Under the pieces are notes generated by a model, which worked only from the letters and a program-made list of their open reading frames with translations, was not told where the DNA came from and searched no databases. The position numbers were made by a program, and so were the translations under genes. A stretch of 64,000 bases of DNA, from NCBI GenBank assembly GCA_963702425.1, contig CAVPCQ010000038.1, forward strand, positions 4,992-68,991, given 5' to 3'. Positions 8,562 to 55,851 of the stretch are shown here, piece by piece. How positions within the stretch are numbered: the first letter of the stretch is position 1; each line of letters begins with the position of its first letter. Source of the stretch: an uncultured Acidobacteriota bacterium. Its GTDB lineage: Bacteria; Acidobacteriota; Polarisedimenticolia; J045.

Positions 8562-10555
8562 GTTGCCCGCCCCGACGCCTCCCGTCCCTGCTCTCCTTCG
8601 TGCTCACCGCCGCGGCGGTGGGTATCGCGACGGTCCCGGCTTCGCGCGCCGGCGCGCCCGGAGACCCTCCGACGTGGCGCTACGCCGGGGTCGAGCGCGT
8701 CGTCGCGATCGGCGACGTCCACGGCAGCTACGAGCCGCTGGTCGAGGTGCTGCGCGCCGCGGGGCTGATCGACGAGGCGCTGGCCTGGAGCGGCGGCAAG
8801 GCGCACCTCGTGATGCTCGGCGACCTCGTCGACCGCGGTCCGAAGGAGCGCGAGGTGCTGGACCTCGTCATGCGGCTCGAACGCGAGGCGCCGGAAGCCG
8901 GCGGCCAGGTGCACGTGCTGCTCGGCAACCACGAGGTGATGAACCTGGTCGGCGACCTGCGCTACGTCTCGAAGGCCGGCTACGCCGAGTACGCCGAGGC
9001 GACCCCGCCCAGGGAGCGCGAACAGGCGCTGGCCCGCTTCATGCGGTCCGGCGGCGGCGCGGAGACCGGCCCCGAGGGGGTGCTGCCGCGGTTCAACGAG
9101 CTCTACCCGCCCGGGTACTTCGAGCGACAGAAGGCCTTCTCGGCGAGCGGCGCCTACGGCCGCTGGCTGCTCTCGAAGTCCTTCATCCTCGTGATCGACG
9201 ACGTCGCGTACGTGCACGGCGGCCTGCCGCCGAGCGTGGCCTCGGAGGGCGCGGAGGCACTCAACCGGTCGCTGATGCAGGAGATCCAGGCCTACATCAA
9301 GGCGCGCGAGACGCTGATCGAGGCCGGTCTGCTCGACCCGGAGACGAGCTTCGTCGAGTCGTTCCAGCGGGTCGGGCAGAAGGTGGAAGAGGCCGAGGCC
9401 AAGGGGCAGGCGCTGCCGGAGGCGTCTGCGAAGGCGGCCGAGACCCTGCTGGCGAGCGCGGGCGCCTACGCCTTCAGCAATGAGAACCCGTTCTGGTACC
9501 GCGGCACGTCGCTCAACCCCGAGCCGCAGGAACTGCCGGCCTTCGAGGCGGCGCTGGCGAAGCTGGGCGCGAAGTCGGTGGTCGTCGGACACACCACCAC
9601 CCCCGGCGGGCGGATCACCTCGCGCTTCGGCGGGCGCCTGCTGCGCGCGGACACGGGGATGCTGAGCGAGGTCTACCGCGGCCGCGGCGCGGCGGTCGTG
9701 GCGGAGGGCGGGACGCGGCGGACGCTCTACCCCGGCGACCCGGCGGACACCAAGCCCGTTCCCGAGACGAAGGAGGAGCCGGGTCCGATCGTCGCCCAGG
9801 GGATGCCTGACGCAGCGCTCGAGACCTTCCTGAAGACCGCCGACGTGGTCAAGATCGAGGACATCGGCTCCGGCATCACCCGGCCCAAGCGGCTGTCGCT
9901 GCAGAAGGACGGCGTTTCACGGCGCGCGGCGTTCAAGTACGTCGACGAGACGTTCGACTCGACGGTGCGCATCGCCGGCCGCCTGGAGATGCAGTTCAAC
10001 GACCGTTACATCTACGACGTCGCGGCCTACCGGCTCGACCGGCTGCTCGAGATGGACATGGTGCCGGTCGCGGTCGAGCGGACGGTCGACGGTACCGCGG
10101 GGGCGGTGCAGGACTGGATCGAGAACGCGATCGACGAGGGGCGGCGTGTGACCGAGAAGCTCGAGCCCTATGACGCCGAGTCCTTCAAGCGCCAGACCCA
10201 GGTGATGCGCGTCTTCGACGCGCTGATCTACAACGCGGACCGCAACCAGGGGAACATCCTCTACACCCCCGGGGACTGGAAGCTGCACCTGATCGACCAC
10301 ACGCGCGCGTTCCGGCTCGGCACGGGGCGCCCGCCGGGCCTCGTCGACGTGCCACTCGTGATCGAGCCCGAGCTGCGCGTGCGGCTCGCGGCACTGAACG
10401 AGGAGCAGTTGAAGTCGGCCCTCGGTGGCCTGCTGAGCAACGCGCAGATCGGCGCGATCCTGAAGCGCCGCGACAAGCTGCTGGCGGAGACGGTGCCGAA
10501 GGCGGCGCCCAAGGCACCGGCCAGCGCCGCGCCGGCCGTGAAGCGCGCCTCGTAG
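8558..10555 (+). CDS. secreted fusion protein: calcineurin-like (Shewanella-like/PPP-type) metallophosphoesterase + C-terminal PI3/PI4-kinase-like (protein-kinase-fold) domain
   Basis: ATG 8558 overlaps the kinase gene's stop (ATGA). Signal peptide: LLSFVLTAAAVGIATVPASRA. Phosphoesterase motifs: AIGDVHGSY, MLGDLVDRGP, LLGNHEVMN, VHGG, VVVGHT. The C-terminal ~225 aa (about 9800-10477) carry FDALIYNADRNQGNILY (10217-10261) and LIDHTRAF (10289-10312). These resemble the catalytic and activation segments of type II PI4K-like kinases. Confidence 0.7.
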   Translation: MSCPPRRLPSLLSFVLTAAAVGIATVPASRAGAPGDPPTWRYAGVERVVAIGDVHGSYEPLVEVLRAAGLIDEALAWSGGKAHLVMLGDLVDRGPKEREVLDLVMRLEREAPEAGGQVHVLLGNHEVMNLVGDLRYVSKAGYAEYAEATPPREREQALARFMRSGGGAETGPEGVLPRFNELYPPGYFERQKAFSASGAYGRWLLSKSFILVIDDVAYVHGGLPPSVASEGAEALNRSLMQEIQAYIKARETLIEAGLLDPETSFVESFQRVGQKVEEAEAKGQALPEASAKAAETLLASAGAYAFSNENPFWYRGTSLNPEPQELPAFEAALAKLGAKSVVVGHTTTPGGRITSRFGGRLLRADTGMLSEVYRGRGAAVVAEGGTRRTLYPGDPADTKPVPETKEEPGPIVAQGMPDAALETFLKTADVVKIEDIGSGITRPKRLSLQKDGVSRRAAFKYVDETFDSTVRIAGRLEMQFNDRYIYDVAAYRLDRLLEMDMVPVAVERTVDGTAGAVQDWIENAIDEGRRVTEKLEPYDAESFKRQTQVMRVFDALIYNADRNQGNILYTPGDWKLHLIDHTRAFRLGTGRPPGLVDVPLVIEPELRVRLAALNEEQLKSALGGLLSNAQIGAILKRRDKLLAETVPKAAPKAPASAAPAVKRAS

Positions 10556-22094: not shown

Positions 22095-22120
22095 GTAGGG
22101 GCCGGCCTCCGTGCCGGCCC
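22095..22120. repeat. REP-like hairpin element, single copy (variant CTCCGT loop)
   Basis: GTAGGGGCCGGCCTCCGTGCCGGCCC has the stem GGCCGGC/GCCGGCC. It belongs to the same family as the elements at 35685-35798 and 44607-44724. Confidence 0.7.
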
Positions 22121-22294
22121 GTCCGGAACCCGTCTGGCTCCGGGCGGCCCGAAAGGCCCGCCGCACCCGGGTTTCGGCCGCCCCCGAGCTTGACCCCGGC
22201 GACCCCCCCCCGGGCCGCCGCGCTCGCTGACCCGGCCGCCCCCCGGGGGGCGCGCACCGGGCGGGCGCTCCTGCCCCTGCGGGGTCGCGCCCGG

Positions 22295-28945: not shown

Positions 28946-31900
28946 TCAGCGCGCCGGCAGCCCCTTTCTCGGCAGCGGCGGGACCGGCGGGAGCGGCCGC
29001 GGATCCTCGGCGATCTTCTTCCGCAGCAGCGCGATCGCCGCCTCGAGCTGCGCGTCCTTCCCATCCCACGTCGCACGGGGAAGGTTGTCGACGACGACGT
29101 CGGGCTCGACGCCGTGCCCCTCGATCAGCCAGGTCCCTTCCGGACCGAAGACGCCGTACTCCGCCGCCGTCGCGATCCCGCGGTCGACCAGGACGTTGCT
29201 CGACGAGAGCCAGATCTCGCCGCCCCAGGTCCGCGTGCCGAGGACCGGCCCGAGCTCGAGCCGCCGGAATCCCTCCGCGAACGCCTCGCCGTCGGAGGAG
29301 GTCCCCTCGTCCACCAGCACGACGACGTGGCCGCGGAAGGCGTACTGCATGTTCCAGGACGGCGCGCGCCCGGCGCGCTGGCTCCAGTAGAACCAGGCCC
29401 GGCGCAGCAGGCGCGACAGGATCCAACTGTCGATGTTGCCGCCCCGGTTGTGGCGCACGTCGATGATCAGTCCCTGGCGCGTGAACGAGGGGTAGTAGTC
29501 GCGGGCCCACGCCGAGTAGTCGTCGCCCCCCATCGCGCGCAGATGGACGTAGCCGATCGTGCTGCCGCTCGCCTCGTCTGTCCTGAGGCGGCGCGTGTAC
29601 TCCCACTCGTGGTAGCGGCGGTCCGCGTCATCGTCGGGCGTCAGCGGCTGGACGATCACCTCGCGCGGCGCGCCGCCGCCGGCGGGCTTGACCGAGAGCA
29701 GCACCTGGCGGCCCGCCTTGGCGCGCAGCAGCGCGCCCGGATCGGGCGACGAGAGGGTCGCGACGCCGTCGATCGCCAGGATCACGTCCCCCGGCTTCAC
29801 GTCGACCCCCGGCCGCGCGAGCGGCGAGGCCAGCTCCGGCCGGTCGGGATCGGACCGGTAGATCGACTCTACGACGAGCCCGCCCCGCTCCGGGTCTCGG
29901 GCGAGCCGCGCTCCGAGGAAAGCCGGGGCCGGCTCGACGTCTCCCTTCCGCGCGTCGCCCCCGTAGACGAAGGTGTGCAGCGCCTCGACCTCGCTGACCA
30001 TCTGCGCCAGCAGGTCGGACAGCTCGGCCCGGCTGTGGACGCGGTCGACGAGCGGCAGGTAGCGCGCCTTCATCCCGCTCCAGTCGATCCCGTGCATCGC
30101 CTGGTCATAGAAGTAGTCGCGCTCGAGGCGCCAGGCCTCGTTGAACATCTGCCGCCACTCCTCCCGCGGGTCGACCGGCAGCGTGAAGGCCGTGAGATCG
30201 ACCTTCTTCTTGTCGAGGTCGGTGACCGGCGCGGCCGCGGCGTCGAAGACGTAGAGCGCGTCGTCCTTGCGGACGAGGAGCTTCTTGCCGTCCGCGCTGG
30301 GCTCGGCCGAGAGCACGCCGGCGAGCACCGTCTTGACCTCCGGCTTCTCGTTCGTGATCTCGAGCGCCTGGAGGTCCGCCTTCGCGCGCTCGCCGGCGGT
30401 CGACGACAGCCAGTAGAGCGCCTTCTCGGTGACGAACAGGCCGCGGAAGTTGCCGGGCGGGACGGGGACCTCGAGCAGCCGCGCCGCGAGGCCGTCGGGA
30501 TCGACGGTGGTGGGGGGCGGGGTGTCTGGCTTGACCTCCGGCGAGCCGTCGCTGCGCTTTCCGCTGCTCTTTCCCTGCTCTCCCTTCTCTGTCTTGTCGC
30601 GCTTCTCGCCGTTCTCCCGGTTCGCGTCCTTCACCTCCTTCTTCTCTGCAGGGGGATGCAGCTCGTCCGCCGGCTCGAACGGCGACCGCAGGTCCGGCGC
30701 CAGCGCCAGCAGGTAGACGCGCGTCGTCTTGTCGAAGTAGGGCTCGGGCTGCATCAGTCCCCAGGGGCCCGGGACGAGCGAATTGAGGTTCCGCTCGGAG
30801 AGGAAGGCGAGCCACTTTCCATCCGCCGAGAACGCCGGGGACGAACTGTCGTAACGGTCGGTCGTCGCGAAGAGCGCCGCGCCCCCCTCGACCGGGTAGA
30901 GCTTCACGCGCCGGTTGAGGTTGTCGCCGGGGACCGCGGCCGCGAGCCAGCGACCGTCGGGCGACCAGGCGAGGTCCTCGATGTCGGCAATCGCGGACTC
31001 CTCCAGCTTCCGGGTCGCGCCCGTCGCCTGGTCGGTGATCCACAGCCGCTGGTTCTTGTCGGTGTGCGCGATCCGCTTGCCGTCGGGGGAGGGGAGCGCG
31101 ATCCAGCGCAGCACCTCGCCGCCCCTCGTCACCTGACGCGCGTCGCCGACGCCGTTGGCGGGAAGCGTCCAGAGCTCGACCTCGCCCGACTCGTCCGAGA
31201 GCGCGACCAGCGACTTGCCGTCGGGCAAGAAACGCGCGTCGCGGAAGCGCACGCCCGGCCGGCGCGAGGCCTCGACGAATCGCCCGGGGCCCACCGGTGC
31301 GACGAACACCTGCCCGCGCGCGGTGAGCACCACGCGCTTGCCGTCGGGCGACAGGTGCGCCGAGGTCGTCCAGGTGAGCGGATCCTTGACGGTCCGCTCG
31401 CGCGTCTGGTCGAGGTCGGAGCCGAGCGTGATCGCCAGCGGCGTCTCCGTTCCGGCGGCGATGTCGAAGAGGAACAGGTCGGCGCCGGAGCGGAAGGCGA
31501 TCCGTCCCGCGTCGAGCGACGCCTCGGCGATTTCCCAGCTGCGCTTGGTGTGCTGCCGCAGATCCTTCCCGTCGCCGGTCATCGACCAGAGGTTCATCGT
31601 GCCGTCGCGATCGGAGAGGAAGTAGACCCGCTCGTTCCAGACCATCGGGCCCTTGCTCGTGCCGGGGTAGTCGCCGGTCAGGAGCACCGCTTCCGCGGCG
31701 CCGCCGTCCCAGCGCCAGATCTGCTGCACGGTGCCGCCGCGGTAGCGCTTGGTGTGGCTCCCCTGGAACGGCAGCCGCGTGAAGTAGAGCGCCGTTCCGG
31801 CCTCGTTCCACGCGCCGTCGGCGGCCTGCGCCAGCGGGATCGGCTGCGACGATCCCGACGCCGGATCGAGCGTCTCGAGCTGGACGGACGGCAGGGTGGA

Positions 31901-32350
31901 GCGCGCGGTGGTGGCGTAGAGCACGCGGCCGTCCTTCGTCCAGCCGGCGACGGTCGGCGTGCCCCCTCCACTCGACGCCTGCCAGGTGTGCCGCATCGGC
32001 GGGCCGCCGGCGAGAGGCATCGTGTAGACCTCGGCCGGGCCGTCGTAGCGGGCGACGAAGGCCACGGTCGTCCCGTCGGGCGAGATCGCCGGGGATCCCT
32101 CTCCGGCGGCGTCGGTCGTCAGCCGGGCCGCGACCCCGCCGCGCGCGGAGACCCTCCATAGGTCCCCCTCCGAGACGAACACGATCGTCTCGCCGCGCAG
32201 CGAGGGCTGGCGGTAGTAACCGAGCGGGGCCGCGGGAGGTGCGGGGCGGGCCGCCGCAGCGGCGGTTTCAGCGGCCGGGGACGTCGTTCCGGTCGCAAGG
32301 CCCGGAAGCGCAAGAGACAGACCACACGCGAGCAGGGCAGAGCGCGTCAT
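28946..32350 (-). CDS. tricorn-protease-like S41 peptidase (TolB-like beta-propellers + PDZ + S41 domain)
   Basis: 1134 aa from ATG 32350 (GGAGG upstream) with a signal peptide. The N-terminus reads YYRQPSLRGETIVFVSEGDLWRV...SPAISPDGTTVAF, typical of tricorn homologues. A PDZ-like GDVILAIDG is present, and VVVLVDEGTSSDGEAF..GTRTWGG lies at the S41 core. Confidence 0.8.
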   Translation of the reverse strand: MTRSALLACGLSLALPGLATGTTSPAAETAAAAARPAPPAAPLGYYRQPSLRGETIVFVSEGDLWRVSARGGVAARLTTDAAGEGSPAISPDGTTVAFVARYDGPAEVYTMPLAGGPPMRHTWQASSGGGTPTVAGWTKDGRVLYATTARSTLPSVQLETLDPASGSSQPIPLAQAADGAWNEAGTALYFTRLPFQGSHTKRYRGGTVQQIWRWDGGAAEAVLLTGDYPGTSKGPMVWNERVYFLSDRDGTMNLWSMTGDGKDLRQHTKRSWEIAEASLDAGRIAFRSGADLFLFDIAAGTETPLAITLGSDLDQTRERTVKDPLTWTTSAHLSPDGKRVVLTARGQVFVAPVGPGRFVEASRRPGVRFRDARFLPDGKSLVALSDESGEVELWTLPANGVGDARQVTRGGEVLRWIALPSPDGKRIAHTDKNQRLWITDQATGATRKLEESAIADIEDLAWSPDGRWLAAAVPGDNLNRRVKLYPVEGGAALFATTDRYDSSSPAFSADGKWLAFLSERNLNSLVPGPWGLMQPEPYFDKTTRVYLLALAPDLRSPFEPADELHPPAEKKEVKDANRENGEKRDKTEKGEQGKSSGKRSDGSPEVKPDTPPPTTVDPDGLAARLLEVPVPPGNFRGLFVTEKALYWLSSTAGERAKADLQALEITNEKPEVKTVLAGVLSAEPSADGKKLLVRKDDALYVFDAAAAPVTDLDKKKVDLTAFTLPVDPREEWRQMFNEAWRLERDYFYDQAMHGIDWSGMKARYLPLVDRVHSRAELSDLLAQMVSEVEALHTFVYGGDARKGDVEPAPAFLGARLARDPERGGLVVESIYRSDPDRPELASPLARPGVDVKPGDVILAIDGVATLSSPDPGALLRAKAGRQVLLSVKPAGGGAPREVIVQPLTPDDDADRRYHEWEYTRRLRTDEASGSTIGYVHLRAMGGDDYSAWARDYYPSFTRQGLIIDVRHNRGGNIDSWILSRLLRRAWFYWSQRAGRAPSWNMQYAFRGHVVVLVDEGTSSDGEAFAEGFRRLELGPVLGTRTWGGEIWLSSSNVLVDRGIATAAEYGVFGPEGTWLIEGHGVEPDVVVDNLPRATWDGKDAQLEAAIALLRKKIAEDPRPLPPVPPLPRKGLPAR

Positions 32351-32447
32351 CGAACCTCCGGGTGCGTCGAGTGCCGCCGGGATGATAGCGGAGCGGGAGC
32401 GGCACGCGTCGCCCGCCGGAGGAGAGCGATCCGAGCCGGCGGCCGCA

Positions 32448-32531
32448 CGGCCGCTCCGCGCCGCCGCTCGTCCCGCGGCCGCTCCGCGCCGCCGTTCGTC
32501 CCGCGGCCGCTGCGCGCCGCCGTTCGTCCCG
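32448..32531. repeat. 28-bp tandem repeat, three copies
   Basis: CGGCCGCTCCGCGCCGCCG(C/T)TCGTCCCG occurs at 32448-32475, 32476-32503 and 32504-32531 (the third copy has TG for TC), followed by a partial copy. It lies in the non-coding gap between the divergent tricorn and TonB-C genes. Confidence 0.85.
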
Positions 32532-32557
32532 CGGCTGCCGATACAGGGGGCCCGTCC

Positions 32558-32787
32558 GAATGCACATCCGGCGACAGAGGACCCCCTCGAATGCACACAT
32601 CGTCCCCAGCGACGGCGTGATGACTCCCACCTTGAGCCCAAGTTCACCGCAAAGAGTCGCCGTGCGCCACCGCCGACCGGGTTCCGGTCGCGATCTTCCT
32701 GCCGGCGAGGGCCTGCTCAGCGCGGCGGTGTGCGTTCGAGGGGGTCCTCTGTCGCCGGATGTGCATTCGAGGGGGTCCTCTGTCGCC
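32558..32787. repeat. 40-nt inverted repeat (39/40 match) flanking a 131-nt spacer; the right arm is partly duplicated
   Basis: The left arm at 32558-32597 is GAATGCACATCCGGCGACAGAGGACCCCCTCGAATGCACA. Its reverse complement matches 32729-32768 (TGTGCGTTCGAGGGGGTCCTCTGTCGCCGGATGTGCATTC). The unit TGTGC(G/A)TTCGAGGGGGTCCTCTGTCGCC occurs twice on the right (32729-32756, 32760-32787). Confidence 0.85.
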
Positions 32788-32972
32788 ACGCCGACATTCG
32801 GCTGTGAACGCTGTCGCGGTCTCTCGGCCCGGCCGCGGATCGTCGGGTCGGCCGGGGCCCCGCTTCGACCTGTCGCCGCCACGTCGCATGCCGGCGCCGA
32901 CCACGGCGCCGGCCTCCGTGCCGCGTCGGTCCGGAACGTCGCGACCGGCAAGGGAGCGGGCCGCTCCCGGGC

Positions 32973-32978
32973 TAGAAT
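32973..32978 (+). promoter_or_regulatory. candidate -10 element TAGAAT (context GCTAGAATCC) upstream of the TonB-C gene
   Basis: It lies 39 nt upstream of GTG 33017. The same TAGAATCC octamer lies 47 nt upstream of the S9 peptidase gene (60057). No convincing -35 was seen. Confidence 0.25.
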
Positions 32979-33016
32979 CCGGACGGACCGGTTCCCGTCC
33001 CCGACGGAGTCCCATC

Positions 33017-33896
33017 GTGCGCCGCATGCTCCAGTTGCTGTCATCAGGGTGCCTCGCCGCACTCGCGGGCGGGTGCGCCGCCGCCGATTCGCCGGCAGCC
33101 GAGGAATGGGCGCGCTGGATGCTGCGCGGGCTGCCCGGGGTCTCGGTCGCGTGCACCCCGAAGCTGGAAAGCGACCCAGCCATGACCGTCCACTGCGTCG
33201 ACCTGGAGATGCCGTGGAACGAGTTTCGGCGGGAGTGGGAGTCCGCCCTCCGGTCGGCCGGCCGGTCGTTTCCCGACACGGGGTGGCTCGATGAGGGGAA
33301 GCTGAAGCGCCGGCGCTACATCGTCTTCGACGTGCCCGTCGACGTTTTTCGAGACTCCGCGGGCTCGGGCCTGGTGATCGCGGTCCCGCGCTTCTTCCTG
33401 GATTGCGACGAGGTGAACTGGGGCGATGTGATCGACCTCGACCAGGACACCTCGGGGGAGATCACGCGCCCGCAGCTCGAGCACCGGGTCGAGGCCGTCT
33501 ACCCGGAACGCGAGCGCCGGGCCAGGCGCCTAGTGTCACGTAACCGAAGTCACGCTAACGCCGGGGCGGTCTGGCAAGCCGATGGCTGCGTTGCTCCTCC
33601 TTGCTGTACGGTTCAGTACAGCGTCGTCGTCGCGCCTTGCCCTCGGCTCACCATCCTCGCCCTGGCATTAACCTGACTTCGGTTACGTGACACTAGGCAG
33701 GGTCTGGATGATGGGACTGATCCGCACGGATGGGCACGTCGCGCCGCTCTGCATCAAGTCGTCGGAGGGCGCCACGCCCGCGATGAACTCCGCCGCGCTG
33801 CGCGCGCTCGCGCAGTGGCGCTACGCGCCGGCGCTGCGGGACGGCCAGCCGATCGCGGTGCGATTCGTGGTGGCCATCAGTTTCTCCGTCCGCTAG
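33017..33896 (+). pseudogene. lipoprotein with TonB C-terminal domain, split by a MITE insertion
   Basis: GTG 33017 (GGAG upstream); lipobox LLSSGC / ALAGGC. The upstream part ends ...EITRPQLEHRVEAVYPERERRARR, then reads into the MITE and stops at 33676. Track ORF 33687..33896 (..GRVWMMGLIRTDGHVAPLCIKSSEG..AALRALAQWRYAPALRDGQPIAVRFVVAISF) is the rest of a TonB_C fold. Removing 163 bp rejoins the two frames. Confidence 0.8.
33530..33696. mobile_element. MITE copy 1 (159-bp core flanked by CTAG on both sides)
   Basis: Perfect 23-nt terminal inverted repeats: CTAG-TGTCACGTAACCGAAGTCA ... TGACTTCGGTTACGTGACA-CTAG. There is a central hairpin, GCTGTACggttcaGTACAGC. The element is too short to encode a transposase. 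A second copy at 55685-55851 differs at two positions (33553 and 33555, C vs T). Confidence 0.85.
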
Positions 33897-33916: not shown

Positions 33917-35623
33917 CTACGGTGCACGCGAACCGACGCGCAGCATCGCCGCCGCTCCGATGCGCCGCTCGTCCCCCCGTCGCCCCTCGACGCGCCAGTA
34001 GAGCGAGCCGCCGTCGCGCGCCAGCGCCGTCGCGCGGCGCCACTGGTCGGCGCCCGGGGTCCACGACGTCGCACGGGTCCAGCGGCCGGAGGTCACGATC
34101 CGCCCGGCGGCCTGCGGGTCGGCGCTGAAGACGACGCGGCATTCGTCCATTCCGGCCGCGTCCCAGGAGAACGTCGGGAGCCGGTCGGGCACGGCCGCCG
34201 CCGCGCCGCCGCCCGCCGCCAAGCCCGCCGCCGTGTCCACCACCGCGCCATCGCCCGGCGCCAGCGGCCGCGGCGCGGTGTCGTCCGGGTACCACCGGGG
34301 GAACGCGTCCCCCCGCGGCCAGGCCTCGGCGCGCGCCGCGGCGCGCCGCAGCACGGACTCGACCTCCCACAGGAACGCCTCGGTCTGCACCGGCTTCGTA
34401 TTGAAGACCGCCGCGAACGCGCGGCCGTCGGTGATCCGCATCAGCAGCGCCGTCGAGCCGAAGAGCGAGCCGCCGTGCCAGACGGCGGCGCGCGGCCCGT
34501 CGGGACGCACGTACCAGCCCAGGCCGTACCAGGCATCGCGCAGGATCCAGGTCGATAGCTGCGGGCGGAGCAGCATCAGGCGCTGGGTACCGGGCGAAAG
34601 GAGATCCGGCCGCTCCGGCAGCCCGTCCACCGCCGTCATGAAGCGCACGAGGTCGATCGCGGAAGCGGTCCAGCCGCCCGCGCTGTCCATCGCCTCGATG
34701 TAAAACCCGCCATCCGGCCAGGCGACCAGGTCCTCCTCGTCCGGGAAGACCGAGCGGACGAGCGCGCGAACTCCGGAGTCGTAGTAGCGCACCTCGCCGG
34801 CTGGCCGGTCCGCGGGCCGGGAGCGCCCGATCCGCATCCGCGTGATCCCGAGCGGGGCGAGGATTGCGCTCCGCACGTACTCCTCGTAGCCCATCCCGGA
34901 AGCGTGCTCGATGACCCGGCCGAGCAGCGCGTAGCCGAAGTTGGAGTAGGAAAAGCGGCCGCCCGGCGAGAAGTCGAGCGGCCGACCCTTCACGAAGCGG
35001 ATCACCGTGCGCGCGTCGGCGGGGGCGGGGGCGTCGACGGCCTGCGCGGTGAGGCGCGGCGCGAACATCGGGTCGAGCGAGAGCAGGCGATCCCAGCCGG
35101 CGGAGTGGTTGAGCAGGTCGCGCACCGTGATCCGCTCCAGCCGCGGGTCGGGGCTGGCGCCGGCGGGAGGAGCGAGGTCGGGGAACATCGGGAAGACGCG
35201 CTCGTCGAGGCGCAGCCTCCCGTCCTCGACCAGTTCGAGGATCGCGGTCGCGGTCACCGTCTTGGAGACGCTGCCGATCCGGAAGACCGCATCCGGGGCG
35301 ACGGGCAGGCCGCGCGCGACGTCGGCGTAGCCGAAGCCGCGAGCGTAGACGAGGCGGTCGTCGCGGATCACGGCCAGCGCGCCGCCGGGGATCTCCCAGC
35401 GCTCCATCAGCGCCAGCATCTCGCGGTCGAAAGCGGCCAGGCCGGGCACGGCCGTGCCGGTGATCGGGAAGGGGTGCGTCTCGCGGGCGACGGGGGTCCG
35501 GCCGGGGGCGGGGGCCGGGGCGGCGGCAGGCAGGGCCGCGGGAGGCGGGGCAGCGCACGGTCCCGGCGTGGCCACGAGGCCCGTCGAGAGGAAGGCGACG
35601 ATCGCGAGGCGCCGGCCGGGCAT
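33917..35623 (-). CDS. serine hydrolase, class C beta-lactamase/DD-peptidase family, with C-terminal extra domain
   Basis: 568 aa from ATG 35623 (GGAGG upstream) with a signal peptide. S-x-x-K motif: FRIGSVSKTVTA. Y-x-N motif: FSYSNFGYALLG. The C-terminal ~150 aa lie beyond the catalytic domain. Confidence 0.8.
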   Translation of the reverse strand: MPGRRLAIVAFLSTGLVATPGPCAAPPPAALPAAAPAPAPGRTPVARETHPFPITGTAVPGLAAFDREMLALMERWEIPGGALAVIRDDRLVYARGFGYADVARGLPVAPDAVFRIGSVSKTVTATAILELVEDGRLRLDERVFPMFPDLAPPAGASPDPRLERITVRDLLNHSAGWDRLLSLDPMFAPRLTAQAVDAPAPADARTVIRFVKGRPLDFSPGGRFSYSNFGYALLGRVIEHASGMGYEEYVRSAILAPLGITRMRIGRSRPADRPAGEVRYYDSGVRALVRSVFPDEEDLVAWPDGGFYIEAMDSAGGWTASAIDLVRFMTAVDGLPERPDLLSPGTQRLMLLRPQLSTWILRDAWYGLGWYVRPDGPRAAVWHGGSLFGSTALLMRITDGRAFAAVFNTKPVQTEAFLWEVESVLRRAAARAEAWPRGDAFPRWYPDDTAPRPLAPGDGAVVDTAAGLAAGGGAAAAVPDRLPTFSWDAAGMDECRVVFSADPQAAGRIVTSGRWTRATSWTPGADQWRRATALARDGGSLYWRVEGRRGDERRIGAAAMLRVGSRAP

Positions 35624-35684
35624 CCGCGAGACCTCCGGGAGCGGGATTATGCCCGCCCCGGGGCCCCCCGGCTGCGCCGCCCGA

Positions 35685-35798
35685 AGGGGCCGGCCTTCGT
35701 GCCGGACCGACCGACGACGGGCAACCAGCGGGCCGGCACAGAGGCCGGCCCGACCGACGACAGGCAACCTGCGGGCCGGCACAGAGGCCGGCCCCTAC
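35685..35798. repeat. REP-like hairpin array (three hairpins; the two right-hand units have a 43-bp period)
   Basis: GGCCGGCcttcgtGCCGGAC sits at 35688-35707 in the opposite orientation. GGCCGGCACAGAGGCCGGCC then occurs at 35731-35750 and 35774-35793, each preceded by CGACCGACGAC(G/A)GGCAACC(A/T)GC. The array ends ...GGCCGGCCCCTAC at 35798, 8 nt before the stop of the M14 gene. Confidence 0.8.
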
Positions 35799-35805
35799 GG
35801 CGTCA

Positions 35806-44593: not shown

Positions 44594-44606
44594 TCAAAAA
44601 GAAGAC

Positions 44607-44724
44607 GTAGGGGCCGGCCTCTGTGCCGGCCCGAGGAATGCCGGCCTCTGTGCCGGCCCGAGGAATGCCGGCCTCTGTGCCGGCCCGAAACCTCGTGCGG
44701 GCCGGCACAGAGGCCGGCCCCTAC
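44607..44724. repeat. REP-like hairpin array: 27-bp unit x3 plus one inverted copy (candidate terminator/REP cluster)
   Basis: GCCGGCCTCTGTGCCGGCCCGAGGAAT occurs at 44613-44639 and 44640-44666, with a truncated third copy from 44667. GTAGGGGCCGGCCTCTGTGCCGGCCC (44607-44632) is the exact reverse complement of 44699-44724. The array starts 14 nt after the flotillin stop. Confidence 0.85.
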
Positions 44725-44765
44725 CGGCGGCCGAGCGATACGGGGGCCGCCCGCGTGGATGACCG

Positions 44766-47124: not shown

Positions 47125-48039
47125 TCAGTCGACAGGGATCCTGCGGCTGGAAGCCGGCCGCGGGTCCCGGAAGGTCCTCGGCTCCGCGCCGTTGCTGGTC
47201 GCCTTCGCCAGCCGGCGGCGCAGGCGTACGATCGCTTCCTCTTCGATCTGCCGGGCCCGCTCGCGCGAGAGCCCGAGCATCTCGCCCAGCTCCTGGAACG
47301 TCATCGCCGGGCGGCCGTCGAGGCCGAAGCGGTTCAGGATGATGACCCGCTGGCGCTCGGAGAGCAGCGCGACCTCGCGTCGCACCAGCGTCCGCACGCG
47401 CAGCCGGTCGACCTCGAGCTCGGGCGACGCGGAACGCGGGCAGGCCAGCCGGTCGAGCACCGTCAGGCCGCCTTCGCTCGTGGCGTCCTGGTCGAGCGAG
47501 AGCACGCGCGGCTCCCCGCCGCTGCGGTCCACCACGGTCGCCTCGGTCAGCCCGGCCCGCAGCGCCAGCTCCTCGACCGTCGGAGCGCGTCCCAGCTCCG
47601 AGCGCATCGTCTCCTCGATCAGCCGCAGGTCGCGTCGCCGCTCGCGCGCGTAGCGCGTCAGGCGCACGGAGCGCCCCTCGCGGCAGAGGTAATCGAGGAT
47701 CCGCTTTCTGATCCACCACGCGGCGTAGGTCAGGAACTTGACCTCGTGCGACGGGTCGTAACGATGCGCCGCCTCGACGAGGCCCATGTTCCCCTCGGCG
47801 AGCAGGTCCTCGAACGGGATCTCGCGGGACTGGAACTCGCACGCGACCTGGACCACGAAGAACAGGTGCGGTTCGACGAGCTCGCGCACCCGGGCGCGGT
47901 CGATCGGGCCCTCGTGCGGGGTGAGCATCGGCAGCGAGGCAGGGCGCTCCTCGCGTTGCACGCGCCGCGCATCCTCGAGGTAGTGCGACACGAGTCGTCG
48001 CGAAGACCGCCGCCCTGCCGACGGAGTGCCGAAGCTCAA
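47125..48039 (-). CDS. RNA polymerase sigma factor, sigma-70 family (regions 1.2, 2, 3 and 4 present); start uncertain
   Basis: Region 2: DLLAEGNMGLVEAAHRYDPSHEVKFLTYAAWWIRKRI. Region 4: MTFQELGEMLGLSRERARQIEEEAIVRLRR. TTG 48039 has GGGAGGGGG 3 nt upstream. The alternatives are TTG 48102 (track) and GTG 47991. Confidence 0.75.
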   Translation of the reverse strand: MSFGTPSAGRRSSRRLVSHYLEDARRVQREERPASLPMLTPHEGPIDRARVRELVEPHLFFVVQVACEFQSREIPFEDLLAEGNMGLVEAAHRYDPSHEVKFLTYAAWWIRKRILDYLCREGRSVRLTRYARERRRDLRLIEETMRSELGRAPTVEELALRAGLTEATVVDRSGGEPRVLSLDQDATSEGGLTVLDRLACPRSASPELEVDRLRVRTLVRREVALLSERQRVIILNRFGLDGRPAMTFQELGEMLGLSRERARQIEEEAIVRLRRRLAKATSNGAEPRTFRDPRPASSRRIPVD

Positions 48040-48132
48040 GAGCCCCCTCCCGTTCCGCTTCGAAGGAGAACCGACCCCTCGAAGGGCTTCCCGTCCTGCC
48101 AACCCCGCGGCAGTCTACTCGCGCCGGGGGTG

Positions 48133-49023
48133 TCAGGGAAGGGGAGAACGGGTGACGCCGGTGTGAGAATCGTCGTCGATGCGGCGTGCGGCGACGGCGA
48201 CCGAACAACCGCTCGCTGCCCCGATCGGAAGAAAAGTCAGTCGCGTCGGCCGAGGCAGTAAGCCGTGCCCGTGGGCCTCTTGCCAGAGGGATCTCCAGCC
48301 CTCGAGCTGGCGCCGACCGAGGCGGTAGACCGCGCCGTTCAGGGCTGTCTGGGCGCATTCGAGCGCGATGCCGCGGGCCGGACCCAGCGCGGCGATCGAG
48401 GCCAGGTCGCGGCGGGCTCGCGTGCGCGCCCCGTGCATTAACGCGTATGTTCGCCGGTCGATCGCGCCGGGCCGCGCGGCCCAGGCCCACCAGACCATCG
48501 GCATCCCGGTCAGCTCGGTCCAGGCCGCCCCGAGGTTCAGCGCGCGGGGATCGCGCCGGCCGCCGGGGGCCTCCCAGCGCAGCGCGTCGTCGCCGGCGAC
48601 GAGCACCGCGCCGTGCGCGACCAGCGCCGCCTCCAGCGGACCCGTCCAGGGTTCGATCTCCACGGCGCGGCCGCCGGCGGCGAAGAGCGTCGCCGCAACC
48701 AGCTCCGCCGCGTGGCCCGGCGCCGTCGAGACGATTCTCCGGACCTCCTCGAGCGGCACGCGCAGGTGCAGGATCGCGTCCGAGGGTCCTTCGCTCGCGA
48801 CCGCCAGGCCCGGCACGACCCGGACCTCGTCCGCGCGCCGCGCGATCTCGGAAGCCGGGAGCAGCGCCAGGTCGAGCGTCCCCTCGTCGAGGCGGCGCGC
48901 CAGCTCGAGCGGCGGCGCGATGGACAGCTCGAACGGCCCGGCGGCGGCGGGCGCGTCGAGCCCGCAGATCAGCGGCGCGGCGACGAGGTCGCCCGGCGCT
49001 CCCGCACGCCAGCGCACCGGCAT
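48133..49023 (-). CDS. mqnA: chorismate dehydratase MqnA-like (futalosine-pathway menaquinone biosynthesis), PBP-like fold
   Basis: 296 aa. The pattern ..P..LARRLDEGTLDLALLPASE.., ..LVAGDDALR.., LNLGAAWTELTGMPMVWWAWAAR matches the MqnA layout (..DLG..W...TGLP.V.A.W..R). The assignment is by recollection of family motifs only. Confidence 0.55.
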   Translation of the reverse strand: MPVRWRAGAPGDLVAAPLICGLDAPAAAGPFELSIAPPLELARRLDEGTLDLALLPASEIARRADEVRVVPGLAVASEGPSDAILHLRVPLEEVRRIVSTAPGHAAELVAATLFAAGGRAVEIEPWTGPLEAALVAHGAVLVAGDDALRWEAPGGRRDPRALNLGAAWTELTGMPMVWWAWAARPGAIDRRTYALMHGARTRARRDLASIAALGPARGIALECAQTALNGAVYRLGRRQLEGWRSLWQEAHGHGLLPRPTRLTFLPIGAASGCSVAVAARRIDDDSHTGVTRSPLP

Positions 49024-53012: not shown

Positions 53013-55688
53013 GTGGAGTCGAGCCGGCCATCTGCGATCGGCCTGAGCGTCGTCGTCGCCGTGCTGCTCACGACGGCCCCCGGCGTGCGCGGCGCGCGCG
53101 AGTTGACGCTCGACGAACGGGTCGATGCCCGGTGGGCGATCGAACAGGTCTTCTGGAACCACCGCATCTGGCCGGCGGAGAATCCCGGACCGAAGCCCTC
53201 CCTCGAGCAGGTTGTTTCCAGGCTCGCGCTCCGAGCGCGGGTGGAGCGCGAGCTCGAAGCCTTCGCCGCCGCCGAACGGTCGATCGGCCGCGCGATCACG
53301 GCCGACGAACTCCAAGACGAGGTCGCGCGCATGACCCGCGACAGCCGGGATCCGGAGATGCTGCGCGAGCTCTTCCGCGCCCTGAATGACGACCCCGAGC
53401 TGATCGCGGAGTGCCTGGCGCGCCCGCTCGTCGCGGATCGGCTGCGGCAAGGCGCGGCCCCCGCCGGATCGAAACTCCTGCCGCCGCTGGAGACGAAGCG
53501 GCGCCCGTGGTCGTTCTGCGACTACGACACCTGGCGCCAGATGACACCGTCCCCGCTCGCGCCGCGCAGTCACCACAGTGCGGTTTGGACCGGGAGCGAG
53601 ATGATCGTCTGGGGCGGTGCAGAGCCCGGGGCCACGCAGACGGGGGCGATCTACACCCCCGCGATGGGTTACTGGTTCTTCACGTCGATCACTCGCTTTA
53701 CGCCCGAGCCGCGCCTCGAGCACACCGCGGTCTGGACCGGGAGGGAGATGATCGTCTGGGGCGGCCGCGACCCCGCGATGGGCGAGGGCCAGTGGCTCCA
53801 GACCGGCGGCCGGTTCGATCCCGCCACCGGTGCGTGGACTCCGGTCTCCGTCCCGGCCGAAGCGCCTTCGGCACGCGCGCGCCACACCGCCGTCTGGACG
53901 GGGAGCGAGATGGTGATCTGGGGCGGCGAGGACCGAGCGGGCTCGCTCGACAGCGGCGGCCGCTACGACCCGGCGACGGAGCGCTGGCGCGGGGTGGGGC
54001 AGGCCGGATCGTTCATGCCCGGGCCGCGCAGCGGACACACGGCGACCTGGACCGGGGGCGAGCTGCTCATTTGGGGCGGCGAGTACAAGGACGCGTCCGG
54101 CGGCCGTCGCGCCCTGGGAGACGGCGCACGCTGGTCAGCGCTCGCGGACGCCTGGACTCCCGTCACGGCGGCCGGCGCGCCGAGTCCCAGGCGCGGACAC
54201 ACCGCGATCTGGACCGGAAGCGAGTTGATCGTCTGGGGCGGCCTCGATGATTCTGGAAACCCACCGACCGACGCGGGTGCGCGCTACGACCCGGCCACCG
54301 ACGGCTGGCGCGCCGTCAGCGCCGTCGACGCGCCATCCACCCGGGAGCTCCACAGCGCCGTGTGGACGGACCAGGAGATGGTCGTCTGGGGTGGCCTCGA
54401 TACGACCGGAGCGCCGCCGCTCGACGGCGGGGGCCGTTACGACCCGAAGAACGACCGCTGGGGCGCAACCACGGCGGATCGTGCGCCGGGCGGCCGGGCG
54501 CATCACACGGTCGTGTGGAACATCGGGGAGATGATCGTCTGGGGCGGGAGCGGGGGCGTCGCAGGCAGTCTGCTGGGCGATGGCGGCCGATACTGCGCGC
54601 AATGCCCGTACTGGTTCCCGGATGCCGACGGCGACGGGTTCGGTCTCTACGGAACCGGCGTGATCGCGTGCGAGCAGCCGGCTGCATATGTGGACAACTT
54701 CGACGACTGTGACGATACCGACGCGAGCATTCACCCGGGTGCAGAAGAGACCTGCAACCTGAAGGACGACAACTGCAGGGAGGGCGCGGACGAGGGCGTC
54801 ATGACACGGTTCTACCGGGACCGGGACGGCGACGGGTTCGGGCGAGCGGATGACGGCTGGTCCGCCTGCACCGCTCCCGAAGGCTACGTCGCGGACGCGA
54901 CCGACTGCGACGACTCGCGCGCGGCCGTCCATCCCGGAGCCGAGGAGCGGTTCCTGCTGGACAACTGCGATGACGGTCTCGACAACGACTGCGACGGCCT
55001 GTCCGACGACAGGGAGCCGGACTGCGCCAGCAGCATCACCAAGCCGGACTTCCCGTGGGCGCCGCCGCTGATCTACGCCGGACGTCCCGCCGAGCTGCGC
55101 ACCGGCGGTGCGCGATGCGATCTTGGCGATCCGGTCGAGTACCAGTTCCGATGGGGAGACGGCGCACTCTCCGAGTGGACCACCACCGGCCGAGCGAGCC
55201 ACACCTGGGTGGAGCCAGGCGAGTACGCCGTGCCGGCCCGGGCACGCTGCGGCGGTCACCCGGAGATCCTGTCGCCTTGGTCGACACCCGTCAGGATCCG
55301 CGTCAGCGCGCAACCCACGAGCGGGCCCGATCTCGTCGCCAGCCCGCGTTCCGTTCGGCAGGACTGCAAGCGGCGGAGCGGGGTCGAGGTCTGTACGCTC
55401 AAGGCCCGGATCGCGGTGCGCAACACCGGCGATGATCCCACTTGGTCGAGCCGGCTCGATTGGCTCGTCTCAGATGCGTTGGTCTGGGAGGAAGGCGACA
55501 AGCCCCTCTCCTCGGTCTTCGTGCCGGAGCTGAGGCCAGGCCGGACAAAGACCGTCAAGATCCTGTACACAATCCCCGGCGGGACGAGCGGGCGCGGAAA
55601 GTACCTCCTGGGACGATTGGACCCGGCCAACCGCATCCGGGAGCGGGACGAGCTGAACAACGACTTCGCGGTCGCGATTGGGCCCTAG
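53013..55688 (+). CDS. secreted Kelch-repeat protein with Cys-rich putative metal-binding repeats and PKD/CARDB-like C-terminal domains
   Basis: 891 aa from GTG 53013 with a signal peptide. At least seven repeats of H(T/S)AVWTG.E(M/L)(I/V)(V/I)WGG are present. Two to three D.DGDG(F)G.......C....(Y)V....DCDD.....HPGAEE motifs follow, then beta-sandwich domains. The stop TAG 55686-55688 lies in the MITE-flanking CTAG. Confidence 0.75.
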   Translation: MESSRPSAIGLSVVVAVLLTTAPGVRGARELTLDERVDARWAIEQVFWNHRIWPAENPGPKPSLEQVVSRLALRARVERELEAFAAAERSIGRAITADELQDEVARMTRDSRDPEMLRELFRALNDDPELIAECLARPLVADRLRQGAAPAGSKLLPPLETKRRPWSFCDYDTWRQMTPSPLAPRSHHSAVWTGSEMIVWGGAEPGATQTGAIYTPAMGYWFFTSITRFTPEPRLEHTAVWTGREMIVWGGRDPAMGEGQWLQTGGRFDPATGAWTPVSVPAEAPSARARHTAVWTGSEMVIWGGEDRAGSLDSGGRYDPATERWRGVGQAGSFMPGPRSGHTATWTGGELLIWGGEYKDASGGRRALGDGARWSALADAWTPVTAAGAPSPRRGHTAIWTGSELIVWGGLDDSGNPPTDAGARYDPATDGWRAVSAVDAPSTRELHSAVWTDQEMVVWGGLDTTGAPPLDGGGRYDPKNDRWGATTADRAPGGRAHHTVVWNIGEMIVWGGSGGVAGSLLGDGGRYCAQCPYWFPDADGDGFGLYGTGVIACEQPAAYVDNFDDCDDTDASIHPGAEETCNLKDDNCREGADEGVMTRFYRDRDGDGFGRADDGWSACTAPEGYVADATDCDDSRAAVHPGAEERFLLDNCDDGLDNDCDGLSDDREPDCASSITKPDFPWAPPLIYAGRPAELRTGGARCDLGDPVEYQFRWGDGALSEWTTTGRASHTWVEPGEYAVPARARCGGHPEILSPWSTPVRIRVSAQPTSGPDLVASPRSVRQDCKRRSGVEVCTLKARIAVRNTGDDPTWSSRLDWLVSDALVWEEGDKPLSSVFVPELRPGRTKTVKILYTIPGGTSGRGKYLLGRLDPANRIRERDELNNDFAVAIGP

Positions 55689-55847
55689 TGTCACGTAACC
55701 GAAGTCATGTTAACGCCGGGGCGGTCTGGCAAGCCGATGGCTGCGTTGCTCCTCCTTGCTGTACGGTTCAGTACAGCGTCGTCGTCGCGCCTTGCCCTCG
55801 GCTCACCATCCTCGCCCTGGCATTAACCTGACTTCGGTTACGTGACA

Positions 55848-55851
<4 letters not shown>
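55685..55851. mobile_element. MITE copy 2 (same orientation as copy 1)
   Basis: It is identical to 33530-33696 except at 55708 and 55710 (T instead of C). It is flanked by CTAG at 55685-55688 and 55848-55851, which hold the stop codons of the two convergent neighbouring genes. Confidence 0.85.

Follow-up and report, generated by a model that had tools for sequence, protein, structure and literature searches.

The intergenic region

The window analysed here, a 64,000-nucleotide (nt) stretch of DNA from an uncultured Acidobacteriota bacterium (contig CAVPCQ010000038.1, positions 4,992 to 68,991), contains a gap at 32351-33016 between the start of a minus-strand gene for a tricorn-type S41 protease and a plus-strand open reading frame (ORF) at 33017-33676. 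Within this gap, at 32539-32790, lies a palindromic element of approximately 250 bp that recurs, with the same architecture, in related genomes, and whose origin and maintenance are the subject of this report. Third-position GC content (GC3) gives no frame between approximately 32200 and 33000 and reaches 0.93-0.95 in both flanking genes; because no frame signal is present there, the gap is taken as non-coding, in agreement with an earlier reading made from the letters of the window (the sequence-only reading), which had found none of the ORFs across it to be protein-like. The same reading held the gap to be the largest gene-free stretch of the window, a ranking that a crude GC3-based screen leaves less secure, as comparable low-signal runs occur elsewhere, for example at 47881-48391.

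Architecture of the palindromic element

The components of the element, in window coordinates, are the following.

32539-32566, minus strand: left outer 31-bp unit, degenerate (TGTGCATTCGGACGGGCCCCCTGTATCG), with 8 mismatches to the consensus, a position weight matrix (PWM) score of 25.0 bits and a 'TTCGGAC' signature
32570-32597, minus strand: left inner unit (TGTGCATTCGAGGGGGTCCTCTGTCGCC), an exact match scoring 35.8 bits, whose TGTGC end abuts the core
32598-32728, no strand assigned: core or spacer of 131 nt, lower in GC, conserved in length and poorly so in sequence
32729-32759, plus strand: right inner unit (TGTGCGTTCGAGGGGGTCCTCTGTCGCCGGA), scoring 33.1 bits
32760-32787, plus strand: right outer unit, an exact copy scoring 35.8 bits
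32791-32821, plus strand: possible third, decayed unit (ACATTCG-N10-CTGTCGC), in register and 31 nt after the previous unit

A near-perfect inverted repeat (39 of 40 positions, 32558-32597 versus 32729-32768) enclosing a less GC-rich core of 131 nt had already been noticed. Both observations are correct, though the true extent of the repeat is larger: the arms run from 32543 to 32598 and from 32728 to 32783, each 56 nt long, 89% complementary and with 129 nt between them, and the GC content of the core is 0.64-0.67 versus 0.73-0.84 in the flanks. Two 31-bp units in tandem make up each arm; their consensus is TGTGCATTCGAGGGGGCTCTCTGTCGCC, represented in the window by TGTGCATTCGAGGGGGTCCTCTGTCGCC(GGA). 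The 28-nt unit occurs three times with at most one mismatch, together with one degenerate copy at 32539-32566, and is never found in shuffled sequence; the four occurrences therefore define a 2+2 architecture, with two units on the left (minus strand) and two on the right (plus strand), spaced 31 bp from start to start and with their TGTGC ends pointing toward the core. The possible third unit on the right comes from a reading by eye and a Tandem Repeats Finder (TRF) row at 32735-32800 (period 31, 2.1 copies), and falls below the PWM threshold.

The conserved portion of the unit spans 22-28 bp, xGTGC-R-xTCG-x4-GG-YY-CTCT, and looks like a candidate protein recognition site. Only a weak central motif, (G/T)GAGCC..GAA/GTT..CGCAAA, is discernible in the core. 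The predicted fold is very stable, with energies of -166 and -161 kcal/mol on the two strands (z of -10 and -8). A coding reading of the arms (MCIRGGPLSP...) was rejected, because a period of 31 nt is not divisible by three and disrupts the frame, a TCC/CTC lineage variant is non-synonymous, and the approximately 250 bp of the element lack a GC3 frame signal.

Several known sites were compared with the unit by eye and set aside. The string GAATGCACA matches the DnaA box TTATNCACA at 7 of 9 positions, but the 'N' position is invariant here and conservation spans 22-28 bp; the CIRCE and HAIR heat-shock operators show half-site resemblance only, with the wrong spacing; and sigma-54 and extracytoplasmic function (ECF) promoter motifs give no consistent match.

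Copies of the element at two loci

In the closest relative, represented by a 3.27-Mb contig (L005), coding DNA at the orthologous tricorn locus is 85-88% identical to the window, and 340 nt separate the beta-lactamase-family gene from the tricorn gene, nearly all of them accounted for by two units, a 131-nt core and two further units. The units of L005 carry the variant GGCTCTCT, those of the window the variant GGTCCTCT. The next relative (L002/L003/L004, approximately 80% identical) possesses an orthologous degenerate 2+2 version with a 119-nt core.

A second locus emerged from a scan of 241 million metagenome records with a degenerate two-unit pattern, which matched a single contig, L006, with two inverted matches 130 nt apart. 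In L006 a sigma-factor gene ends on one side of the element and a YCII-domain gene begins on the other, and further contigs were reached through homologues of the YCII protein of L006. Five contigs carry the element at this locus (L006, L007, L008, L010 and L011), one of which, L007, is on the same 3.27-Mb contig as the tricorn-locus copy L005, 160 kb away. The copies differ in their state of preservation: two of the four units of L007 have decayed, the L008 copy is degenerate, L010 is intact, and L011 is interrupted by a contig end. In total there are eight instances at two loci in at least five genomes, with the same architecture throughout, and both host spacers lie between co-directional genes. 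The distance from the element to the downstream start is approximately 80 nt in L005, 190 nt in the window, approximately 310 nt in L002 and approximately 700 nt in L008. The 'TTCGGAC' deviation of the left outer unit is common to the window, L002 and L010.

Empty sites are also found among the relatives. In the outgroup contigs L012-L015 the sigma-factor and YCII genes are only 21 nt apart, tightly packed in an operon (NUDIX-PDDEXK-sigma-YCII-GNAT-thioesterase in L012) and without the element, which is therefore a derived insertion. In L009 the sigma-YCII spacer is 108 nt long, and instead of the palindromic element carried there by other genomes it contains a REPIN of the GTAGGGGCCGGCCTCTGTGCCGGCCCG family. 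Filled and empty sites can thus be distinguished, with boundaries that are not clean.

The sigma factor upstream of the second locus (L007 8429-9544; L012 2960-4420) possesses regions 1.2, 2, 3 and 4 and scores 220 bits against TIGR02392, below the cut-off of 323, and on these sequence features is classed as RpoH-like. ECF42 sigma factors adjoin YCII genes in the literature, and an ECF42/DGPF identity was considered for this protein; the presence of regions 1.2, 2, 3 and 4, together with its likeness to RpoH, rules it out. Read by eye, the distance from the arm end to a conserved TTGACC is 23-27 nt in L006, L007 and L010, and in L005 a -35 element would be expected approximately 27 nt from the arm end. 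As a separate observation, a REP-like hairpin (GGGGCCGGCC...GCCGGCCCG) follows the conserved TTGACC block and precedes the YCII start codon in L006 (4040-4075), L007 (9955-9990) and L010, where it is in the 5' UTR of the YCII gene.

Conservation, covariation and core homology

Conservation is distributed unevenly over the element. The arms are 77-86% identical among intact copies, and the cores, at 0.53-0.59, are at the level of unrelated GC-rich sequence. The core lengths, 131, 131, 130, 123, 133, 119 and 128 nt, are held to a range of 119-133 nt, even though tandem expansions make the adjoining spacer DNA differ by hundreds of nt. Positions G2, G4 and C5 are invariant in 28 of 28 units, preserving xGTGC, and T3, C9, G10, G15, G16, C19 and T22 are near-invariant across the same set; inner and outer units alike are close to one consensus.

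Complementarity between the arms is likewise maintained. Watson-Crick pairs are formed at 45-53 of 59 arm positions in the window copy, L005, L006 and L002, and across the arms 81% of cells are paired and 18 pairs have been altered on both sides, as compared to 10.8 +/- 2.2 in shuffles (1 of 500 reaching 18) and 6-10 in slid controls. RNAalifold independently recovers the same helix, and several derived states are specific to a pair of units, namely TGGGC in the L005 outer units, TCGGCGG in the L006 inner units and YAAGG in the L008 inner units, each time in both members of the pair. Because G:U-type mismatches are symmetric between the strands (10 on the plus strand versus 12 on the minus strand among 42 non-Watson-Crick cells), the covariation points to RNA from neither strand; arm-to-arm conversion or the formation of a DNA hairpin would explain it equally well.

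The cores, poorly conserved as they are, retain a trace of common descent. Hidden Markov models (HMMs) of cores from one locus match the cores of the other locus weakly, above shuffles and in the same orientation only: L006 obtains 8.4 bits from the tricorn-core HMM, a score reached by 0 of 200 shuffles, and the YCII-core HMM on the window and L005 is equalled by 1 of 200 and 0 of 200 shuffles, respectively. This core homology, together with the common 'TTCGGAC' deviation of the left outer unit, indicates that the module was copied whole rather than assembled separately at two promoters.

The window arms (32539-32790) are 86% identical to those of L006 (4146-4398) at the YCII locus and 79% identical to those of the orthologous copy in L005 (9665-9920), and the unit variant (GGTCCTCT or GGCTCTCT) seems to go with the lineage of the genome and not with the locus. 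The genomes of the window and L006 would be relatively close, to judge from P0122 at 94%. Such lineage tracking hints at concerted evolution, or at co-evolution with a trans factor.

Origin and maintenance of the element

The interpretation that fits best, and which is given an even chance of being correct, is that 32539-32790 is one copy of a low-copy, ancient, vertically inherited, non-coding foldback insertion element of approximately 250 bp, akin to the miniature inverted-repeat transposable elements (MITEs) and to ERIC. The repeat family is previously undescribed, its general kind is already known, and it appears to be confined to an uncultured, 72%-GC, Acidobacteria-like clade. Comparison of the copies indicates that the element was copied whole into at least two spacers, beta-lactamase-family to tricorn and RpoH-like sigma to YCII, and that insertion was followed by vertical inheritance, during which the arms stayed complementary and near the family consensus and the core drifted. 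The arms are constrained in both sequence and complementarity and the element is dispensable in some lineages; the decay of two of the four L007 units and the degenerate copies in L002 and L008 show the dispensability typical of selfish repeats. Mobilisation would have occurred in the past and in trans, through a transposase-like protein binding the four sites. At present, the effect of the element could reside in its 56-bp stem (approximately -160 kcal/mol), formed in a read-through transcript or in extruded DNA, and a stem placed between the upstream gene and the downstream promoter may uncouple or process the two messages, as in ERIC and Correia elements.

Of the characteristics of a MITE, the element possesses terminal inverted repeats, a small non-coding size, and filled and empty sites. 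As to dispersed copies, two loci on one 3.27-Mb contig are known, and the approximately 200 kb of related DNA that was scanned contains no other. A number of observations weigh against such an origin. With only two known insertion loci, and neither a further copy nor a solitary unit in those approximately 200 kb, the copy number is very low for a MITE. A window-type 20-mer gave one match in 185,579 reference genomes, in a coding region of an unrelated metagenome-assembled genome and judged to be chance; two patterns gave no match in viral contigs, blastn against plasmids and phages returned only a 36-nt chance match, and no autonomous partner or transposase was found in plasmids, phages, viral contigs or, by the 20-mer, reference genomes. 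No target-site duplication is visible, in that no common direct repeat flanks the copies in the window, L005, L006, L007 and L010, whose ends are fuzzy. The TGTGC (TG...CA-like) ends face the core, the reverse of typical termini of DDE transposons, and the equal numbers of G:U-type mismatches on the two strands favour no selection for a one-strand RNA hairpin. Lastly, a dead MITE should not retain coding-like conservation of its arms in orthologous copies, and present-day constraint is therefore needed, which a host function, continuing conversion or a still-active trans factor could provide. Termini of the ISL3 or Tc1/IS630 type, with their TA duplication, were also considered, by eye, and rejected: the orientation is wrong, and the 'TA' on the left side of the copies in the window and L005 is part of the unit register (TGTAGCC versus TGTCGCC).

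The leading rival, a fairly unlikely one, supplies the present-day constraint that a dead MITE needs: the element would be a host cis-regulatory operator, possibly a domesticated repeat, whose four 28-bp motifs bind one clade-specific protein, with tandem sites 31 bp (three helical turns) apart on one face of the DNA and inverted pairs that loop the approximately 130-bp spacer to control the downstream promoter of the tricorn protease gene or the YCII operon. In its favour, motif positions are kept in 28 of 28 units, inner and outer, which pure stem pairing would not demand, and the 31-bp spacing is invariant, with a spacer of 119-133 nt amid intergenic DNA that varies by hundreds of nt; the position of the arm end relative to TTGACC and to the expected -35 also fits, and variants that seemingly follow lineage are expected under co-evolution of site and trans factor. 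However, the spacer sequence and the asymmetries of the arms are homologous between loci, which indicates whole-module copying and not sites that evolved independently, the interval before the downstream start ranges from approximately 80 to approximately 700 nt, the element has decayed in L007 and is absent from L009 and the outgroup, solitary sites are lacking elsewhere in approximately 200 kb, and no regulator gene is conserved beside either locus. A more specific proposal, and an improbable one, is a domesticated four-site nucleoprotein module, with the 28-bp motif as the target of a clade-specific regulator or recombinase that would bring the two inverted pairs of sites together over the length-constrained spacer of approximately 130 bp, looping or occasionally inverting DNA upstream of stress and proteolysis genes (tricorn, and the operon downstream of the RpoH-like sigma factor), the motif variant co-evolving with the protein by lineage. 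Were selection instead acting on RNA pairing, in an intergenic mRNA segment or a small RNA of its own, the 56-bp stem would serve as an RNase III site, stabiliser or attenuator. The very stable fold on either strand, the compensatory arm changes in excess of shuffled and slid controls, and the placement of the element between co-directional genes at both loci, in the same orientation relative to them, are all consistent with a structured RNA, which is nonetheless quite improbable: an Rfam cmscan of 31800-33600 at E<=10, a check that the sequence-only reading had proposed, gave no match inside 32350-33016, G:U-type and A:C-type mismatches are symmetric between strands, inner and outer units share invariant bases that a stem does not need, and there is neither a called promoter or intrinsic terminator nor a U-tract after either arm. 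Arm-to-arm gene conversion and template switching are established mechanisms in DNA palindromes, and either would account for the covariation equally well.

Neutral repeat debris, a product of local duplication and inversion by chance that would belong to no family and be under no constraint, is highly improbable. Some copies have indeed decayed or been lost, and the spacers concerned also contain GC-rich tandem arrays that are clearly specific to a lineage, but the eight instances of one architecture, the conservation of arms around cores at background level, and the invariant motif positions in a unit and pattern unmatched in shuffles are not those of debris, a reading contradicted by the orthologous and second-locus copies and the conserved arms. 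The possibility that the region is decaying debris, raised at the outset for the case that conservation, covariation and other copies were lacking, is at odds with the finding of all three. Least credible is an inverton, in which a recombinase flips the approximately 130-bp core between the inverted repeats and so switches the downstream gene on or off. Long inverted repeats do surround a lower-GC segment directly upstream of a gene, and the full element profile is 23 bits better on L010 in the orientation opposite to that of the other YCII-locus copies; an inverted core in L010 reaches a z of approximately 3 in global alignment and is not significant by local alignment or core-only HMM. Yet the core has one orientation in all five determinable copies (the window, L005, L006, L007 and L011), the left outer unit of L010 has the same 'TTCGGAC' signature as the window copy, no recombinase domains are encoded by neighbouring genes, no promoter was detected in the core, and the YCII gene has its conserved promoter-like block, TTGACC, outside the repeats. 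Of the three possibilities offered by the sequence-only reading, a MITE-like element fits best, given the homology of the entire element and its core between two unrelated loci and its absence from the compact operon of the outgroup; a regulatory region is still a candidate, and a long structured RNA has gained no specific support.

Neighbouring features of the window

The remaining features in and around the gap, all of them outside the element, are listed here.

28946-32350, minus strand: tricorn-type S41 protease gene, the downstream neighbour of the element, with Pfam matches Peptidase_S41, Tricorn_C1, PDZ_Tricorn and PD40, and a 100% match to P0001
32381-32395, minus strand: conserved block GATGATAGCGGAGCG, approximately 30 nt upstream of the tricorn start codon and inside a BLAST block at 32332-32396
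32448-32531, plus strand: GC-rich minisatellite of three 28-bp repeats, adjoining the left arm and lineage-specific
32952-32978, plus strand: hairpin GGGAGCG-ggc-CGCTCCC (32952-32968) and TAGAAT (32973-32978), upstream of the window-specific ORF
33017-33676, plus strand: window-specific ORF, GC3 of 0.85-0.95, strong to approximately 33480, with a 3' end derived from a MITE
33528-33698, no strand assigned: unrelated 171-bp MITE with 41-nt terminal inverted repeats; a second copy at 55684-55851 is 99% identical

The tricorn protein has three close relatives at 83-85% identity among 5.8 billion proteins, the remainder being at 62% or less. Exact look-ups of the proteins encoded in the window, and of P0001 and P0122, found none of them on record. 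The block GATGATAGCGGAGCG upstream of its gene is identical in the window and L005 and is also present in L002; its minus strand includes TATCAT, which could be a -10 element.

On the other side of the element, the ORF at 33017-33676 had been labelled 'TonB-C', a label left unsupported by Pfam and NCBIfam, neither of which gives a match even at E<=5. It is also without a tblastn match in relatives and without a counterpart in any related locus fetched, and on this comparison is considered a lineage-specific gene of unassigned family that entered the interval separating the element from the beta-lactamase-family gene. The second copy of the MITE (55684-55851) is matched by residues 172-210 of the ORF, and the MITE at 33528-33698 provides the last approximately 39 codons and the stop. 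The ORF and the MITE make up an extra 1.1 kb on the right side of the window that is missing from all relatives compared. The hairpin and TAGAAT box described earlier are indeed in the sequence; the right-hand segment in which they lie has no counterpart in relatives, and a simple sigma-70 consensus scan called no promoter or terminator in the gap, the hairpin/TAGAAT site included.

The 28-bp tandem repeat, also described earlier, was recovered by TRF at 32448-32535 (period 28 nt, 3.1 copies, 96% matches, score 162), and its unit occurs three times in the window with at most one mismatch and not at all in 100 shuffles. At the same place L005 has a 15-nt repeat of 1.9 copies, and between the element and the YCII start of L008, at 9381-9917, there is a GC-rich 22-nt array of 12.6 copies and a 123-nt duplication of 2.1 copies that doubles a conserved GGTCAAG block. 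Tandem expansions have thus arisen repeatedly on the downstream-gene side of the element (28-bp x3 in the window, 15-nt x1.9 in L005, the 22-nt array in L008), and the sequence comparison identifies the 28-bp array as a separate, lineage-specific slippage expansion, that is, ordinary minisatellite variation, which the adjacent palindrome may have promoted. Therefore array, inverted repeat and hairpin, at first presented as three elements of one structured region, do not form a unit: the array is lineage-specific, and the hairpin and TAGAAT go with the window-specific ORF. An AlgR box, CCGTTCGTC, inside the 28-bp repeat was rejected, on a check by eye, as a lone 9-mer in a lineage-specific array.

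Two further observations concern the window at large. ARAGORN calls a 97-nt tRNA-Val(GAC) at 34443-34539 on the minus strand, inside the beta-lactamase-family coding region at 33917-35782; because that coding region is conserved at 78-88% in relatives the call is doubtful, and it is probably a false positive. At 53554-54558 are seven diverged direct repeats of approximately 153 nt, 60-79% identical and with a conserved coding motif (...WTG.EMI.WGG...), presumably a gene for a repeat-domain (propeller-like) protein.

Comparison with known systems

If the interpretation as a foldback insertion element is correct, the family joins the few palindromic intergenic repeats of bacteria (ERIC, Correia and similar), which keep orthologous positions under constraint without an obvious transposase, a behaviour still poorly explained. 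It comes from a poorly studied, uncultured high-GC clade and has a legible architecture of four sites, 31-bp phasing and a length-constrained spacer, which makes the choice between protein site, DNA hairpin and RNA hairpin experimentally tractable. For annotators, the 660-bp gap would be neither an unannotated gene nor a riboswitch, the 28-bp array is ordinary, and the neighbouring ORF has no documented TonB domain. A literature string search for the unit motif returned only an irrelevant match.

Known systems with multiple sites share some of these properties. The ends of IR-DR transposons (Tc3 and Sleeping Beauty) and of Tn7, Mu and IS21 likewise have two or more direct sites of approximately 22-30 bp per end, with the ends inverted and the sites starting with TGT or TG; their TG...CA termini, however, point outward and their sites bracket a transposase gene or long cargo, whereas here the TGTGC ends face a 131-nt core and no transposase is present. 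Looping operators such as araO2-araI, or iteron and parC arrays, resemble the element in their phased tandem sites (31 bp being approximately three turns), two clusters and length-constrained, sequence-free spacer, but no cognate protein is known here, the module is homologous as a whole including the spacer, and it is dispensable in some lineages.

Among repeats, the REP, REPIN and BIME families are also intergenic, GC-rich, repeated and found in the same genomes. A REP unit is a 20-35-nt hairpin with a conserved GTAG, whereas the 31-bp unit TGTGCATTCGAGGGGGCTCTCTGTCGCC is not self-complementary, has neither GTAG nor an internal stem beyond 4 bp, and occurs only in the 2+2 module. A classical REP family (GTAGGGGCCGGCCTCTGTGCCGGCCCG, a hairpin with 5' GTAG), separate from the element, occurs as single units, as tandem copies and as inverted doublets in the window (22095-22121, 35671-35804 and 44601-44736), L009 (3500-3615) and L005 (7792-7868). 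The Correia elements of Neisseria (CREE/NEMIS) occur in hundreds of copies, with terminal repeats of 26 bp and a TA duplication. With these and other bacterial MITEs the present element has in common its small, non-autonomous form, terminal inverted repeats, proximity to genes, expected RNA hairpins in co-transcripts and heterogeneous cores; it differs in having no visible duplication, two known loci, and arms of 56-62 bp with internal tandem repeats.

In behaviour it is ERIC that offers the comparison. ERIC, or IRU, sequences are imperfect palindromes of approximately 127 bp in enterobacteria, located in transcribed intergenic regions and conserved along their whole length; related species have copies at orthologous positions, which evolve slowly and show compensatory changes, and there is no obvious transposase partner. 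The element is similarly a non-coding palindrome between co-directional genes, of low to moderate copy number, with orthologous retention, compensatory changes and no obvious transposase. Unlike ERIC, it is about twice the size, its arms consist of two tandem 31-bp units, its loop or spacer of approximately 130 nt is poorly conserved, and it shows no sequence relationship and comes from a different phylum. Membership in the ERIC family is implausible given the host clade and the 72% GC, and the two are thus comparable by behaviour only.

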